NCBI GenBank assembly: GCA_003221615.1
Contig: QHSQ01000140.1
Span: 15,000 to 78,999, forward strand
Length of the DNA stretch: 64,000 nt
Direction: 5' to 3'
From: Candidatus Rokuibacteriota bacterium
Lineage (GTDB): Bacteria; Methylomirabilota; Methylomirabilia; Rokubacteriales; CSP1-6
This document shows positions 3,881-54,479 of this stretch, piece after piece. The notes beneath the pieces are model-generated. The model saw only the letters and a program-made list of their open reading frames with translations. It did not search any database and was not told the DNA's origin. Numbering within the stretch: position 1 is the first letter of the stretch; every line of letters begins with the position of its first letter. The translations under genes and the position numbers were made by a program.

Positions 3881-5359
3881 ATGCGGCCGACGCGGGCGAG
3901 CTCGTTGAGGTGGGTGTGCCTGGCCGTCGCGCTCACGCTCGGCGTGCCGCGCGCGGGATTCGCCGAGGAGCCCCTGACGGCCAAGGCCCCGGCCAAGACG
4001 CTGTCGTGGGAGACGGGCGAGGGCCACAGCTACTTCATTCCCGCCTTCGAGATCGCCGGGTTCATCGCCGGCCTGAACCTGTTCAACCGGTTCCTCGCCG
4101 ATACCGACGACTATGACTCGGATCTGCACTCGATCAAGCACAACCTGACGGCGGCCGAGGTGATCGACAAGGACCCGTTCAGCACAAATCAGATCGGACA
4201 TCCGTATCAGGGCAGCATGTACTACGGGTTCGCGCGGTCGTCCGGACTCAACTACTGGCAGTCAATGGGGTACACCGTCGCCGGCAGCCTCCTGTGGGAG
4301 ACCGTCGGAGAGAAAACGCCGCCTTCGCTGAACGACAACATCGCGAGCGGTATCGGCGGGTCGTTCGTCGGCGAGGCGCTGTTCCGCATGGCCAGCCTGC
4401 TGCTCGAGGGCGGCGGCGAGACGCCCGGCTTCTGGCGCGAGCTCGGAGCCGCGGCGATCTCGCCGCCGACCGGCTTCAACCGTCTCGTCTTCGGCGATCG
4501 GTTCGACGCCGTCTTTCCGAGCCGCAACCCGGAGATCTTCATCCGCCTGCGGCTCGGCGCGACGCTCACGACCGACATCGACACCGGCGGATTGACCCAC
4601 GAAGCCAAGAAGTATGAGGGCAGTCTCGACTACTCGATCATCTACGGGCTTCCGGGCAAGCCCGGCTACAAATACACGCGACCCTTCGACTACTTCCAGT
4701 TCGAGATCACCGCGGTGCCGAACGCCGATCCGATCTCGAACCTCATCGAGAACGCCGCCGTTCGCGGCCTGCTCCTGGGCACGGGCTACGAGCTCGGTAA
4801 CGACTATCGCGGGCTCTGGGGCCTGTTCGGGAGCTTCGACTACCTCTCGCCGCAGGTCTTTCGCGTCTCGACGACGGCCCTCTCGCTCGGCACGGTCGCC
4901 CAGTGGTGGCTCACGCAACGGATCGCGCTCCAGGGGACGGTCCTCGGCGGGGTCGGGTTCGGCGCGGCCGGCACGGTCGGCGACCGGGCGGAGCGCGACT
5001 ACCACTACGGGATCATTCCGGAGGCGCTCGTCGGCCTCCGCGCGATCTTCGGCGAGCGCCTCATGGTCGACGCGACAGGCCATCAGTACTACGTGGCCGG
5101 GAAAGGCGCTGGAGGGGGGATCAGCACCAGCGACATCGGCGGCGAGATAATCACCCGCGTGAACCTCGGGTTCACGGTCCGCGTCTATGGCCCTCACGGC
5201 ATCGGCGTCCAGTACCTCCTCTCGACGCGCGACACGAGTGTCCCCGGCGGGGGCGATCGTCATCAGAGGGTGGAGACGGTCAACCTCACGTACAACTTCC
5301 TCGGCCACACGCGATTCGGCGCCGTCGAATGGCGCCCTGCGGAGCTCGCCGCGCGCTGA
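3881..5359 (+). CDS. secreted/outer-membrane DUF3943-like protein
   Basis: Signal peptide; D-D-F-TNQIGHPYQGSMYYGFARSSG and WE...PSLND motifs typical of DUF3943; beta-rich C-terminus. Confidence 0.75.
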   Translation: MRPTRASSLRWVCLAVALTLGVPRAGFAEEPLTAKAPAKTLSWETGEGHSYFIPAFEIAGFIAGLNLFNRFLADTDDYDSDLHSIKHNLTAAEVIDKDPFSTNQIGHPYQGSMYYGFARSSGLNYWQSMGYTVAGSLLWETVGEKTPPSLNDNIASGIGGSFVGEALFRMASLLLEGGGETPGFWRELGAAAISPPTGFNRLVFGDRFDAVFPSRNPEIFIRLRLGATLTTDIDTGGLTHEAKKYEGSLDYSIIYGLPGKPGYKYTRPFDYFQFEITAVPNADPISNLIENAAVRGLLLGTGYELGNDYRGLWGLFGSFDYLSPQVFRVSTTALSLGTVAQWWLTQRIALQGTVLGGVGFGAAGTVGDRAERDYHYGIIPEALVGLRAIFGERLMVDATGHQYYVAGKGAGGGISTSDIGGEIITRVNLGFTVRVYGPHGIGVQYLLSTRDTSVPGGGDRHQRVETVNLTYNFLGHTRFGAVEWRPAELAAR

Positions 5360-48897: not shown

Positions 48898-49893
48898 ATG
48901 CCAAGGCTGCTCGCGATCTTGCCGGGCCTGTTCGTGGCCGTCGCGGCAACGAGCCTCGGAGCCGACGCCGCTGGCGACGCGCTCGACCGCGGGCTACGCG
49001 CCGTGCAGAGCATGGCGGGCTGCTATCTGGTCGACTACAGCTACGTGGAGGTCGAGAGCCTCAAGCCCGGCTACGCGCGTGACGCGCGTGTCTACGACGT
49101 CAACCGGGACAAGTCCGCGAAGGAGTGGATCACCGCCGAGGTCCTGTCACCGCACCGCATTCGCCTGCAGCGCATCCTGTTCCTCGCCGATCTCGGCGGC
49201 GCCATCCGTGAGGGGAGCCTGATCAAGCACCAGTCCGAGGACTGGGAGTACGACGCGCCGTTCCTGTACGAGTTCGTCGCGCCCCGGAGCTGGCAGGTGC
49301 GCGACCTGAAGGCGACGCCGGGACTCTGGACCCGGCGGGTCACGAATCTCGACGACGGGCCGCGCTATCAGTGTGCGGCGCGCTGGACGGAGGACACGGC
49401 CTATCCGGCGTGGACGTGCTCGAGCTATGCGCCGATTCCCGGCCGCGAGACCCGCGACATGCGGCGCGCCGACTACGACACGCTCGACCGGACCACGCGC
49501 ATCGTCGCGTACGGCCAGAGCTGGCTGGAACGGCAGGACAACGTCAAGACCATCCACCGCGACGGCGCCCGGGCGCCGCTGGCCCGTGAGGTCGGCAAGA
49601 ACTGGTCGATACGGCTCCCGGAGTCCGAGTGCGAGGCCGCTCGAGCCTTCGCCGCTCCGCGCCGAGCGTTCTGGGATCTGGTGCGCGAGGTGTGGGACGG
49701 CGTGCAGGCCGGGACCGCGCCCTTCGTCGAGACGGCGCCGCCGGGCCAGCCGCCCCGCTTCGTGAAGATGCACGAGGTCGAGGACGTCTACGTCGGGCGC
49801 GACCTCGCCGACCCCGCGCTGAGGACCGCGGCCCGAGACCGCATCCGCAAGGTCATCGAAGCCTATCGCGAGCCGGCGCCGGCGGGCCGCTGA
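48898..49893 (+). CDS. secreted DUF6607-like protein
   Basis: Signal peptide; MAGCYLVDY, IKHQSEDW, DDGPRY, QDNVK motifs recalled for this family. Confidence 0.65.
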   Translation: MPRLLAILPGLFVAVAATSLGADAAGDALDRGLRAVQSMAGCYLVDYSYVEVESLKPGYARDARVYDVNRDKSAKEWITAEVLSPHRIRLQRILFLADLGGAIREGSLIKHQSEDWEYDAPFLYEFVAPRSWQVRDLKATPGLWTRRVTNLDDGPRYQCAARWTEDTAYPAWTCSSYAPIPGRETRDMRRADYDTLDRTTRIVAYGQSWLERQDNVKTIHRDGARAPLAREVGKNWSIRLPESECEAARAFAAPRRAFWDLVREVWDGVQAGTAPFVETAPPGQPPRFVKMHEVEDVYVGRDLADPALRTAARDRIRKVIEAYREPAPAGR

Positions 49894-49895
49894 GC

Positions 49896-50519
49896 TCAGC
49901 GGGCGGCCAGGAGGTTCCGGGTCTTCAGCGCGTCGATCACGGTGTCGACGTAGCGCGCGATCTCTTTTCGGATGTCCCGCGGCTCTTCCGTCTCGACCGT
50001 GCCGCTCCAGACGAGCTGGTTCTTCTTCACGTCGTAGAGGCTCGTCTCGGAGACGTAGACGTCGTACTGGTAGTAAGTCGGGGGCTCGTAGTAGCCGAAC
50101 CATGCCCCGGCATAGCCGGGGTAGAAGCCGAAGGCAGCCGGAGCCGGCTGGTAGATGCCCGGACTCACGCGCGTTTTCTTCTCGACCTTGACCAGCCGAG
50201 TCATGATGGTGGCGTCCGCCCCCGCTTGCTTCACGGCTTCGGTCAGTCGCGCCTCCTCGACCGGCCCGTCTTCGGGGATGAAGCGATAGCTCGGCACGGC
50301 GTCCACGCCCGTCGCCTTGAGCCTGGCGACGAATTCGTCCTCGAAGGAGCGGCGGATGCTCGGTTGGCGGGTGATGCCGATGACCATGATCTTGTCGAAC
50401 CGAGGCGCCGCATATTCGGGGCTGCTCCACTGACTGACGATGCGCGTCGTGGCACACCCGGTGGCGACGACCAGCCAGGTCAGGGCGAATCCGAGCAGTC
50501 TCAGTCGCGGGGCACGCAT
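49896..50519 (-). CDS. lipoprotein (DUF4136-like)
   Basis: Lipobox-like ATGC, RRSFEDEFV, ETSLYD...LVWSG. Confidence 0.75.
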   Translation of the reverse strand: MRAPRLRLLGFALTWLVVATGCATTRIVSQWSSPEYAAPRFDKIMVIGITRQPSIRRSFEDEFVARLKATGVDAVPSYRFIPEDGPVEEARLTEAVKQAGADATIMTRLVKVEKKTRVSPGIYQPAPAAFGFYPGYAGAWFGYYEPPTYYQYDVYVSETSLYDVKKNQLVWSGTVETEEPRDIRKEIARYVDTVIDALKTRNLLAAR

Positions 50520-50567
50520 GAGTCGTCCGGATTCGAGTATACCGGCGAGCGACCTCGCGGGCAGGAC

Positions 50568-50634
50568 TACGTCGGTCGCGACCGCTCCGATCCGGCGCTG
50601 AGGGCCGCGGCGCGCGCCCGTATCCGCAAGGTCA
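50568..50634 (+). repeat. diverged 67-bp copy of the 3' end of the DUF6607-like gene (49789-49855)
   Basis: Colinear with about 10 mismatches, several synonymous (YVGRDRSDPALRAAARARIRKV vs YVGRDLADPALRTAARDRIRKV). Confidence 0.75.
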
Positions 50635-50639
50635 GCGGT

Positions 50640-51120
50640 GCGCGTCTCGCTCCGGACACCCGCGGCACTTCGAGCCACGCGCCGGCGGCGTAGTAGACCG
50701 TCTCGAGGACCGGCAACGCGTACAAGTCGTCGTGAGGAAACCGCAGCAGCAGGAACACGCCCCAGATCGTGAACACCGTGCCCACGTACGACCAGCACCA
50801 GCTCGGCTATGCGGTGCTCCGATGCCGGGCGTTTCCGTTCTCGGTGCTCTCACACCCTCAGACTTCAGATCTCGGTGTTCTTCGTCTGGTGTTACGTGGA
50901 CGCCGGCGGGCTGCCGATCCCCAGGCATGGGGATCCGCTGGTCCTCAGGCTCGCCGCAGCGCTCGTGGTCGTCGGACAGATTCTCGTCATCGCGACCTTC
51001 CATCAGCTCGGACGGATCGGCGTCTTCTTCTGCCTTGAAGCCGCTACCGGTTGATGGCGTCGCGATTTTGGCCGGCTACCGAAACGTCACGGGCTCAGGG
51101 ATCGCGGCCGGCGCGCGGGC
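50640..51120. pseudogene. scrambled phospholipid N-methyltransferase (PEMT/PLMT-like) pseudogene
   Basis: Pieces ...GFKA (minus), LQISVFF...GRIGVFF (plus), DQHQLGYAVLRCRAFPFSVLSHPQ (plus) and YVGTVFTIWG...WLE (minus) reassemble into the PEMT FPF..HPQYVG signature. Confidence 0.72.
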
Positions 51121-51126
51121 AAGACT

Positions 51127-51173
51127 CCGCCCGGCGCGCATCCGGCGTGAGAGCACGGATGCGCGCCGGGCGG
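51127..51173 (-). terminator. 18-bp perfect GC-rich hairpin downstream of the esterase gene
   Basis: CCGCCCGGCGCGCATCCG-11 nt-CGGATGCGCGCCGGGCGG; weak U tail. Confidence 0.6.
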
Positions 51174-51179
51174 CTCGGG

Positions 51180-52034
51180 CTAGCGGATCTGCTTGTGCGT
51201 GAACTCCGCGATCATCTCGAGGGCGCGATTGGATGCCGGCGAGCCGACCTTGCGCATGATGAAGCCCTGACCCTCGCCCTCGAACAGCTCGAGATCGACC
51301 ACGCCGCCGGCCTTGCGATAGGCCGCCACGAAGCGGTCGAGATGGGGCCGCGGATGCGCATGATCGTCGGTGCCCTGCAGGTACAGCACGGGCGGGAGCT
51401 GAACCTTCTCGCCGCGCTCGAGCGCCGATGCCGGCGCGCCCTCGTCCATCGCCTCCTCGGTTTTCCAGTAGGCGTCGTGGCACGGCAGGAGCTCGTCGAC
51501 CGCCACCGGGTACGGCTTCCCCTTGGCCATGACGTCCTTCGCGTAGCGGTACCGGCCGAGCGGATCGATGACGGGCGAGGTCATGATCACGCAGCGCACG
51601 GTCGCGTCGATCGCCGGTGCCGCCGCCAGCGGCAGCGCGCTGTAGCGCGGATCGAACGGCCGCATCGCCAGCAGCATCGCCTGGTGCCCGCCGCTCGAGT
51701 TGCCCATCGAGCCCACCATGTCGGGCCGGCCACCGAGCTCGACCGCCCGCGATTTGATCCAGCGGATGCCGTAGTGGATGTCCTGGAACGACGCGGGATA
51801 CGGCGCCGTCGGCGGCTGCCGCCAGTCGAGCGTGGCCACGATCACGCCGGTCTTCGCCAGCGCCTCGTGGATCACCTTGTCGCCGTGGCGATCCGAGCGA
51901 CACCAGGCGCCGCCGTGGAGCTCGACCATGATCGGGAAGGGTCCCGAGCCCTGCGGCCGGTAGAGGGTTGCGAGATACGCCGTGGTGCCGTGCCGGAGGT
52001 ACTCGATGTCCTCGACCTTGACCTCGTAGCTCAT
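51180..52034 (-). CDS. alpha/beta hydrolase (HSL-like esterase/lipase)
   Basis: LHGGAW, GNSSGG; AAGGAGG RBS before ATG 52034; the 1078-aa ORF extension is antisense shadow. Confidence 0.88.
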   Translation of the reverse strand: MSYEVKVEDIEYLRHGTTAYLATLYRPQGSGPFPIMVELHGGAWCRSDRHGDKVIHEALAKTGVIVATLDWRQPPTAPYPASFQDIHYGIRWIKSRAVELGGRPDMVGSMGNSSGGHQAMLLAMRPFDPRYSALPLAAAPAIDATVRCVIMTSPVIDPLGRYRYAKDVMAKGKPYPVAVDELLPCHDAYWKTEEAMDEGAPASALERGEKVQLPPVLYLQGTDDHAHPRPHLDRFVAAYRKAGGVVDLELFEGEGQGFIMRKVGSPASNRALEMIAEFTHKQIR

Positions 52035-52133
52035 GCTGGCCTCCTTGTCGATTCGCGCGTCTATGGCGGCAACCATCCCGTAGCCCGGGTCCGGAGTCAA
52101 GCGCCAGCCGGTGGGTAGGGTATCCTGCCCGGT

Positions 52134-54479
52134 ATGGCGAAGCCAAGACGGATCGACGGGATCGGCGCGTCGGTCAAGCGCCGCGAGGATGTGCGTCTGC
52201 TGATGGGGCAGGGGCGCTACGCCGAAGACGTCAACGCGCCGGGACAAGCCTACGCGGCGTTCGTCCGCTCGCCGCACGCTCATGCCGAGGTGATCTCGGT
52301 CGACGCGAAGCCCGCGCTGGCGCTCGCCGGCACGCTCGGCGTCTTTGCCGGGCGCGATCTCGTCGCCGACGGTGTCGGGCCCATCCCGACGTTGATCGCC
52401 GAGCGCGGCGGCGGCATCCGGAGCCGCGACGGCTCGGCGTTCGCCGAGCCGCTCTGGTATCCGCTGGCGACCGACCGCGTGCGTCACGTCGGCGAGCCGG
52501 TCGCGATCGTCGTCGCCGCCACCCAGGCCGCGGCGTGGGACGCCGCCGCGGCCGTGCGAGTGAGCTATGCCGAGCAACCCTCGGTGGTCGACGCCGTCGC
52601 GGCGCTCGGCGCGGGCGCGCCGCGGCTGCATCCCGGTGTCGCGGAGAATCGCGCGTACGACTGGGAATGCGGCGACCCGAACGCCACCGCCCGCGCCATC
52701 GCGGCCGCGGCGCACGTCACGCGCCTGACCCTCGTCGACAACCGGCTCGTCACCTGCTTTCTCGAGCCGCGCGCGGCGCTCGCCGAGTGGGATGCCGGTA
52801 CCGGACGCTACACGCTCCACGCCGGGCTTCAGAGCGTGCACCAGCTGGCGGCCAACCTCGCGCGCGTCCTGGGTGTCGCGCCCGAGCGCGTGCGCTGCGT
52901 GACGGGCGACGTCGGCGGCGGCTTCGGCTCGAAGATCCAGGTGTATCCCGAGTACGTGGCGCTCGCGTGGGCGGCGCGCCGTCTCGGCCGTCCCGTGAAA
53001 TGGGTCTCGAGCCGGTCCGAGGGGTTCGTCAGCGACGTGCAGTCGCGCGATCAGCTGCTCCGGGGCGAGCTCGCGCTCGACTCGGCCGGGCGGATCAGCG
53101 CGCTGCGCGTGCACTCGACGCCGAACCTCGGCGCCTACGTGGCGCCGAGCATCCCGATCTCGACGCTGTCCAACATGGAGCGGATGATCTCCGGCCTCTA
53201 CGCGATCCCCGCGATCCATCTGCGCGTCGAGGGCGCGCTCACCAACACCGTGCCGATCAACGTCTATCGAGGCGTCGGGCGCCTGGAGTGCGTCTATACC
53301 GTGGAGCGGCTGGTCGAGCGGGCCGCGCGCGAGACCGGACGGGACCGTGTCGCGCTCAGACGCGCCAACATGGTGCGGACGTTTCCGTATCGCACGGCCA
53401 CCGGCGCGGTCTACGACTCGGGCGACTACGTGGCGCGTCTGGACGAGGCGATCGAGCGCGCCGACACGACCGGCTTCGCCGCACGCCGCGCCGATTCGGC
53501 GAAGCGCGGCAAGCTGCGCGGGCTCGGCGTCGGGCCGTACATCGAAGGTACCGGCGGCGTGCCGCAGGAGTTCGCCGAGGTGCGCGTGCAGCCGGACGGC
53601 GTGATCGAGGTGCCGATCGGCGCGATGTCGCAGGGCCAGGGCCACGAGACCGTCTTCGCCCAGGTAGTGGCCGAGCGGCTCGGCGTACCCTTCGGCTCGG
53701 TGCGGATCGTCGCGGGCGACACCGATCGCGTCGCGAAGGGCGTGGGCACGTTCGCCTCGCGCTCGATGGTGAGGGCCGGGAGCGCGGTGGTCGAGGCCGC
53801 GGATGGCGTGGTCGCCGCCGGGCGGCCGATGGCGGCGCATCTTCTCGAAGCCGCCGCGGGCGACATCGAGTACCGGGACGGCGCGTTCCGCGTGGTCGGG
53901 ACCGATCGCGCGATCGGCATCTTCGATCTCGCGCGCGCGGCCGCCGCCGGCCGGTTGCCGCCCGCGCTCGGCACCATGCTGAGCGCCGCAACGATGCACG
54001 AGAACCCGGCGTTCGCGTTCGCCAACGGCTGCGAGGTGTGCGAGCTCGAGGTCGACCCGGAGACGGGCGCGGTCGAGATCGTCGCGCTCACGATGGTCGA
54101 CGACTCCGGCCGGTCCGTGAACCCGATGATCGTGCACGGACAGATGCACGGCGCGGTGGCCCAGGGGATCGGCCAGGCGCTGACCGAGCGGTGCGTCTAT
54201 GATCCGGCGAGCGGGCAGCTGCTCTCGGGCTCTTTCCTCGACTACGCGATCCCGCGCGCCGACGATCTGCCGTCGATCTGCGTCACGAGCCGCGACGTGC
54301 CGAGCCCGACGAACGCGCTCGGCGTCAAGGGCGCCGGCGAGGGAGGCACGGTCGGCGCGCCGGGGGCCGTGATCCACGCGATTCTTGACGCGCTGGCGCC
54401 GCTCGGCGTGACCCACATCGACATGCCCGCGACGCCCGAGCAGGTGTGGCGGGCGATCCAGGCCGCGCCAGGTCGCTGA
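52134..54479 (+). CDS. xanthine dehydrogenase family molybdopterin-binding large subunit (CoxL-like)
   Basis: RSPHAHA, DVGGGFGSK, YRGVGR, GQGHET, GVKGAGEGG. Confidence 0.93.
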   Translation: MAKPRRIDGIGASVKRREDVRLLMGQGRYAEDVNAPGQAYAAFVRSPHAHAEVISVDAKPALALAGTLGVFAGRDLVADGVGPIPTLIAERGGGIRSRDGSAFAEPLWYPLATDRVRHVGEPVAIVVAATQAAAWDAAAAVRVSYAEQPSVVDAVAALGAGAPRLHPGVAENRAYDWECGDPNATARAIAAAAHVTRLTLVDNRLVTCFLEPRAALAEWDAGTGRYTLHAGLQSVHQLAANLARVLGVAPERVRCVTGDVGGGFGSKIQVYPEYVALAWAARRLGRPVKWVSSRSEGFVSDVQSRDQLLRGELALDSAGRISALRVHSTPNLGAYVAPSIPISTLSNMERMISGLYAIPAIHLRVEGALTNTVPINVYRGVGRLECVYTVERLVERAARETGRDRVALRRANMVRTFPYRTATGAVYDSGDYVARLDEAIERADTTGFAARRADSAKRGKLRGLGVGPYIEGTGGVPQEFAEVRVQPDGVIEVPIGAMSQGQGHETVFAQVVAERLGVPFGSVRIVAGDTDRVAKGVGTFASRSMVRAGSAVVEAADGVVAAGRPMAAHLLEAAAGDIEYRDGAFRVVGTDRAIGIFDLARAAAAGRLPPALGTMLSAATMHENPAFAFANGCEVCELEVDPETGAVEIVALTMVDDSGRSVNPMIVHGQMHGAVAQGIGQALTERCVYDPASGQLLSGSFLDYAIPRADDLPSICVTSRDVPSPTNALGVKGAGEGGTVGAPGAVIHAILDALAPLGVTHIDMPATPEQVWRAIQAAPGR

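Follow-up and report, generated by a model that had tools for sequence, protein, structure and literature searches.

A PEMT-family gene remnant with two adjoining segments inverted in place in a soil-dwelling member of the Candidatus Rokubacteria/Methylomirabilota group

The window analysed here is a stretch of 64,000 nucleotides (contig C512, 15000-78999) from a 7.24-Mb assembly in 596 contigs, with a completeness of 96.5% and a contamination of 8.6%. The host, a bacterium from soil, belongs to the Candidatus Rokubacteria/Methylomirabilota group and is known from metagenomes only. At 50563-51042, flanked by intact genes for a DUF4136 lipoprotein and an alpha/beta hydrolase (Table 1), lies a non-functional remnant of a gene for a PEMT-family (PF04191) membrane methyltransferase. 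Two adjoining segments of the remnant, 169 and 72-73 bp long, have each been replaced on the spot by their reverse complement: read along the coding strand, the pieces still come in the order A, B, C, with A and B each flipped and C in its original orientation. The remnant has no uninterrupted reading frame from a start codon, as residues 1-58 are gone and A and B lie on the opposite strand. Pieces A, B and C themselves contain no stops and no frameshifts.

Table 1. Features of the remnant locus, in window positions, and matches to the intact gene of a congener
Feature	Position	Strand	Details
DUF6607 gene, intact	48898..49893	+	
DUF4136 lipoprotein gene, intact	49896..50519	-	between PEMT remnant and DUF6607 gene
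Segment C	50563..50789	-	residues 137-211, YVGTVFTIWG...SERSRPT; original orientation
Segment B	50790..50861	+	reversed in place; DQ[HQ]LGYAVLRCRAFPFSVLSHPQ, residues ~116-137
Segment A	50862..51030 (codons 50863-51030)	+	reversed in place; LQISVFF...QLGRIGVFF, residues 59-114
N stub	51031..51042	-	GGCTTCAAGGCA, GFKA, residues ~55-58
Spacer between stub and hydrolase terminator hairpin	51043..51126		
Hairpin (terminator candidate)	51127..51173		perfect 18-bp stem, 11-nt loop; directly 3' of hydrolase stop
Alpha/beta hydrolase gene (Abhydrolase_3 / BD-FAE), intact	51180..52136	-	
blastn match to L014 1447-1218	50563-50789	opposite	75% over 230 nt
blastn match to L014 1156-1218	50799-50861	same	86% over 63 nt
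blastn match to L014 980-1152	50861-51033	same	68% over 173 nt
tblastn match, G002 protein residues 59-114, vs whole own genome		+	E 1.9e-11
tblastn match, G002 protein residues 117-137, vs whole own genome		+	E 1.4e-4
tblastn match, G002 protein residues 137-211, vs whole own genome		-	E 2.6e-24

The pieces are too short for Pfam (zero families at E values up to 10 when they were searched on their own), and the family was therefore assigned through intact homologues. A DNA-level search of window positions 50000-51700 against 40 relatives located intact counterparts in two genomes of the same genus (G002 and G010) and two of the same order (G036 and G038); the G002 and G010 proteins score 43.8 and 52.7 bits against PF04191, for which the cut-off is 25. 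Scanning metagenome contigs with piece C gave three further loci, two of them distant intact colinear homologues and one a fragment. The motifs GVFFGD, FPFS..HPQY and RFPH are present in the remnant pieces. Against the intact G002 gene (L014 808-1443, 211 aa) blastn returned three matches with mixed strands, and in a tblastn search with the G002 protein all three matches in the bacterium's own genome fell at the remnant site, with no second PEMT-like copy found there. When the pieces were aligned by MAFFT as separate fragments with the four intact homologues, they tiled exactly and without overlap, reading GVFF, then DQ..HPQ with the intervening Gly codon missing, then YVG, with C reaching the C-terminus. 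Apart from that codon, the pieces together cover residues 59-211 of the intact homologues a single time.

These results bear out most of what an initial annotation, made from the sequence, had proposed. The four piece translations were reproduced, and blastn, tblastn and MAFFT all agree that A and B were inverted separately and in place; a single inversion, as had been argued, cannot yield this order, since it would produce B'A'. The PEMT-type identity held up, because the pieces tile homologues that pass the PF04191 cut-off, and the re-oriented pieces align colinearly to these homologues. The description of a gene in four pieces stands for A, B and C, but the N piece shrinks to 12 nt (51031-51042), leaving what is practically a three-piece remnant. 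That small size, the 5' truncation and the deletion of an operon partner had all been missed.

Identity between the pieces and the intact orthologues is 41-55% for piece A, 59-82% for B and 62-73% for C, compared with 44-54%, 55-68% and 62-71% among the orthologues themselves. Since the pieces are as close to the orthologues as these are to one another, and carry no stops or frameshifts, the damage must be recent on the scale of the genus. Segment B contains six extra in-frame nucleotides encoding HQ (50796-50801, DQ-HQ-LGY) that are missing from all four intact homologues and resemble a short tandem duplication of the CAGC type. The N stub matches G038 at 10 of 12 nt, and likewise G010, at the expected position. 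It is the sole survivor of the 5' part of the gene, that is, of everything upstream of A; the joint of the 5' deletion lies at about 51043-51045, and an in-frame stop occurs 15 codons upstream in the N reading (..PVTFR, stop, PAKIATPSTGSGFKA).

At the other end, the stop codon of segment C lies at 50567-50569. The final ~75 nt of the segment (50563-50637) correspond in antisense to the 3' end of a DUF6607 gene and are 85% identical to the 3' end of the present DUF6607 gene (49788-49858). This duplicate is a relic of the ancestral overlap of ~90 nt between PEMT-like and DUF6607 genes that is seen in G002 (L014 1353-1443), and the DUF4136 lipoprotein gene now sits between the two copies. In G002 an LpxH-like gene is followed by the PEMT-like gene, which converges on the DUF6607 gene with this overlap; in G008, another congener, the hydrolase gene is followed by the LpxH-like gene and then by a PEMT-like N-terminus. 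Together, these gene orders give the ancestral locus of the genus as hydrolase, LpxH-like phosphoesterase, PEMT-like gene and converging DUF6607 gene. The relation of the metallophosphoesterase gene to LpxH is based on weak NCBIfam matches that fall below the cut-offs. The LpxH-like gene is missing from the window, and a search with one LpxH-like query gave no match elsewhere in the genome. Deletion has removed the LpxH-like gene and the first ~58 codons of the PEMT-like gene from this species, and with both missing the PEMT-like gene of the window is a pseudogene. It was either dead before the flips or killed by the same event.

The source of the DNA that now separates the stub from the hydrolase gene was sought in several ways. 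Local alignments of 51034-51180 to intergenic DNA of relatives and to the LpxH-like/PEMT 5' region were no better than those of shuffled sequences, blastn against the loci of 12 relatives found no match left of 51176, and blastn-short against the bacterium's own genome gave only chance matches of at most 18 nt. The hairpin beside the hydrolase gene is a likely transcription terminator. It has no T-run and so is not called by a consensus scan of 50400-51300, which returned neither promoters nor terminators.

Other congeners show the same locus at varied stages of decay. In some the lipoprotein and hydrolase genes are separated by only about 130 bp; in one (L018, G013:C38) nothing is left at the locus but 112 nt of the DUF4136 lipoprotein gene (2071-2182), and in another (L039) only residues 32-100 of the LpxH-like protein remain (4682-4888). 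This variety makes the locus a hotspot of repeated gene loss in the genus. Relaxed tblastn searches of these decayed loci for further scrambled pieces returned nothing but noise besides the primary matches. A metagenome contig from a relative with ~95% similarity (run X18), which covers 50571-50670 and 51080-51153, joins 50670 to 51080 with 3 nt of microhomology, a 409-bp deletion that removes 50671-51079 and with it A, B and most of C. As one end of this gap falls inside piece C, the contig records an additional deletion, not an empty site. The remnant is therefore still being eroded, and it appears to be inactive today.

Could the arrangement be an artefact? The assembly is fragmented and, as noted above, partly contaminated, and the initial annotation had listed a ligation chimera among its explanations. 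Against this, 20 soil-metagenome runs from 17 studies contain 74% or more of the words sampled from window positions 49900-51900. Contigs were built independently (k=31) from four of these runs (X1, X2, X3 and X18), which belong to four studies from 2017, 2018 and 2019, and in 4/4 runs they bridge all three joints at a word depth of 7-9, with the qualification that the assembly itself may derive from one of these runs and that a single campaign may lie behind the studies. The contigs are nearly identical to the window: there are no differences in X1 (1514-bp record) or X2 (50571-51153), and one each in X3 (1514-bp record) and X18 (50609-51122; G>A at 50737). Recurrence of the same arrangement in independent contigs rejects a library chimera or a mis-assembly, and we give an assembly or amplification artefact next to no weight. 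The arrangement is real DNA that is present in several natural samples. The contigs of the four runs show no strand-changing joints and no alternative orientation, although contigs can conceal rare variants; the only joint reported among them is the 409-bp skip of X18.

To characterize the joints, we read them on the coding strand against an ancestral state inferred from five homologues. The stub meets inverted A as AAGGCA followed by GAAGAAGAC, with zero shared nucleotides. Inverted A meets inverted B as CTGAAG-T-CTGAGG, with one extra nucleotide (50862) that is either a duplicate of the stub's last base or an untemplated addition. Inverted B meets C as CTGGTC-G-TACGTG, an exact joint in which one nucleotide (50789) is ambiguous: it may be a remainder of the lost Gly codon, namely its last base, or microhomology of 1 nt. 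From the Gly codon that once stood between A and B, the GG has disappeared. Homology at the three joints is therefore 0, 0 and at most 1 nt, and the balance is +1 and -2 nt; one extra nucleotide, two lost and an exact B/C joint are what the initial annotation had described. It had also seen no inverted repeats at the joins, and a search with a seed of 6 and a minimum of 8 nt agrees: among the 25 longest of 41 pairs, none has arms at 50789/50862 or 50862/51030. On inspection, the flanks of the joints proved not to be complementary over 3 nt or any greater length, and no common motif or restriction-like site was apparent by eye at the three ancestral breakpoints.

Two further observations concern the sequence around the joints. 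An imperfect 14-nt inverted repeat (50782-50795 / 50886-50899, 86% complementary) spans the B/C joint; it arises from the presence of TACGTGG in A (WCYVD) as well as at the beginning of C (YVG), and is probably due to chance. We also considered a crossover of the serine-recombinase type, placed at GC dinucleotides close to breakpoints one and two, and rejected it, since it predicts C where the first joint has A.

How could two adjacent segments be reversed with so little loss? Breakage followed by Ku/LigD end joining is the explanation we favour, with moderate confidence. Three double-strand breaks spread over about 241 bp would free two small fragments, non-homologous end joining by Ku and LigD would ligate each fragment into its own slot in reversed orientation, and end processing would yield the added nucleotide at one joint and the two lost ones; the 5' deletion would probably be a separate illegitimate deletion. 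The main argument is the conservation of material. The sequence for residues 59-211 occurs a single time, to within one or two bases, and each of the three ancestral breakpoints has been used again. Conservation of this kind follows automatically from cutting and rejoining, whereas copying would need three independent coincidences of switch points within 0-2 nt. The joints look like scars of non-homologous end joining (NHEJ), showing little or no homology and having gained or lost few nucleotides, and two free fragments can be rejoined in eight combinations of order and orientation, of which the observed one is 1/8.

The genome encodes the enzymes for such a reaction. Profile searches found two matches to Ku (177 and 141 bits), two to the phosphoesterase domain of LigD (LigD_N) and four to its primase-polymerase domain, all above cut-offs, with the reservation that, given 8.6% contamination, the Ku/LigD contigs could come from another organism. 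One contig (C551, 20554-25324) holds a 923-codon multidomain LigD frame adjoining Ku, and further end-joining genes lie on C342, C343, C519 and C530. The initial annotation had raised NHEJ-like religation and asked for ku and ligD; both genes are there and the joints are near-blunt (+1/-2 nt), while the origin of this particular scar from Ku/LigD is inferred.

Within this explanation the number of events matters. Two successive two-break inversions that reuse the middle breakpoint, the last of the four possibilities among which the initial annotation made no choice, would give the same product and are possible; a single event of clustered breaks is simpler and probably to be preferred to two inversions that share a breakpoint to within 2 nt. 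In its one-step form, at least three breaks in ~250 bp would be followed by joining of the 72- and 169-bp fragments by Ku/LigD, reversed and in order, to leave a scar that became fixed in the population; we put this forward only tentatively. It counts against a single event that three breaks are improbable at once in 241 bp: in the judgement of the authors of PMC8755829, even irradiation is unlikely to produce two breaks some 20 nt from each other. Moreover, only ~12-14 nt separate the joint of the 5' deletion from the first inversion breakpoint. A loose piece of 12 bp would make an unusual ligation substrate, and this hints at a separate event or at a process that copies short templates; an independent deletion or a copy-based process fits this spacing better than one event does. 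Finally, only one such scar was found, too few to show a pattern.

Serial template switching during replication (fork stalling and template switching, MMBIR, or the 'four-point' model applied twice) is a rival explanation. The nascent strand would skip the LpxH-like gene and the 5' part of the PEMT gene, copy ~12 nt, switch to the opposite strand and copy A backwards, switch again and copy B backwards, and resume the original template at C. Such a course would account for the 5' deletion and the very short stub by the first inversion breakpoint in one event, and small inverted stretches have been documented to result when synthesis switches over a short range to the opposite strand (PMC7954356, PMC8755829). 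Yet copying need not conserve material, and A, B and C nevertheless tile once with joints within 0-2 nt. Homology at the switch points is close to nil, and copy-based mechanisms, the four-point model among them (PMC7954356), normally draw on microhomology or flanking inverted repeats. In PMC8755829 all 59 of 59 definite human-chimpanzee microinversions are flanked by inverted repeats that abut the boundaries, of which the repeat search described above showed none here, and they measure 17-33 nt, far exceeded by segments of 72 and 169 bp. We therefore consider template switching unlikely, though well ahead of recombination at specific sites.

In a shufflon, adjacent segments are independently reversible, and A and B resemble two such segments in outline. 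An invertible switch or shufflon-like system acting on them, now or in the past, is nonetheless very improbable, and the unspecified site-specific shuffling entertained in the initial annotation found no support. The segment ends lack inverted repeats in the search described above; among the 16 of 40 ORFs tested (at least 220 aa, 40-62 kb) none belongs to a recombinase, integrase, transposase or invertase family; the contigs of the four runs hold a single orientation, within the power of contigs to display rare variants; the segments reside in a dead, 5'-truncated gene; and, as described below, relatives do not share the arrangement.

Comparison with experimental scars supports the break-and-join explanation in part. 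In Streptomyces ambofaciens, only half of the NHEJ scars at I-SceI breaks show microhomology, which is 1-6 nt long, 40% have a single untemplated or fill-in nucleotide, and three clones captured fragments of 30, 42 and 83 bp, the latter two from near the break (PMC5869714, which likens the scars to those of Mycobacterium). The remnant resembles these Ku/LigD scars in its scant microhomology, single added nucleotide, small losses and small ligated fragments, and both hosts live in soil, have a high GC content and encode Ku and LigD. It differs in that two adjacent native fragments were re-seated, reversed and almost without loss, whereas each Streptomyces scar is either a deletion or an insertion, of DNA from nearby or from an ectopic site, at one induced break. 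Those scars are experimental, and the remnant is a natural one whose link to Ku/LigD is putative.

Other systems offer looser parallels. Like the microinversions described in PMC8755829 and PMC7954356, the remnant has small segments swapped in place for their exact reverse complement; unlike those, which are single, 17-33 nt long and flanked by repeats, it has two adjoining segments with a common breakpoint, and repeats abutting both boundaries, the mark of an inverted-repeat-mediated microinversion, are absent among the pairs searched.

Chromothripsis and chromoplexy in eukaryotes are characterized by clustered breakpoints, altered orientation and blunt or near-blunt joints over kilobases to megabases. 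The remnant shares with chromothripsis its clustered breakpoints, the rejoining of flipped fragments through near-blunt joints and, plausibly, an origin in one event; it departs from it in its scale of ~100 bp, in having only two fragments with their order kept, and in occurring in a bacterium. Compared with the PF04191 membrane methyltransferases, finally, it has pieces colinear with and 41-82% identical to intact homologues of the same genus and order, but differs from them in lacking an intact frame and the first 58 residues and in carrying two segments on the opposite strand.

The arrangement is shared by none of the 40 relatives searched. A scan for split, strand-switched matches had been proposed in the initial annotation, and one was carried out against a single congener: 400 kb of the closest long congener contig (G012:C22) were compared with the bacterium's whole genome, and the 262,381 aligned bases contained no adjacent strand-switched alignment pairs, while a G002 contig used as a positive control recovered both flips. 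Titles and abstract openings in the literature gave no bacterial case of an adjacent in-place double inversion without repeats, a weak negative; a study of ion-beam treatment (PMC9282665), which found no large rearrangements, has no bearing on the case. As far as we have searched, the scramble is a one-off.

The scar itself has no functional consequence and is the single known case. It does carry a warning for annotation, because strand-switched gene fragments such as these escape gene callers and Pfam. Small inversions are usually ascribed to inverted repeats and template switching by polymerases, and the remnant, which comes from an uncultivated soil phylum and recurs in several independent samples, provides a clean natural counter-example. 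If it arose in one step, bacterial end joining would be able to reassemble very small fragments after clustered breaks, which would be relevant to 'unalignable' stretches and odd pseudogenes in metagenome-assembled genomes and to mutation in dormant or desiccated soil bacteria. One-step micro-shattering, if true, would be a bacterial counterpart of chromothripsis on the scale of a hundred base pairs.
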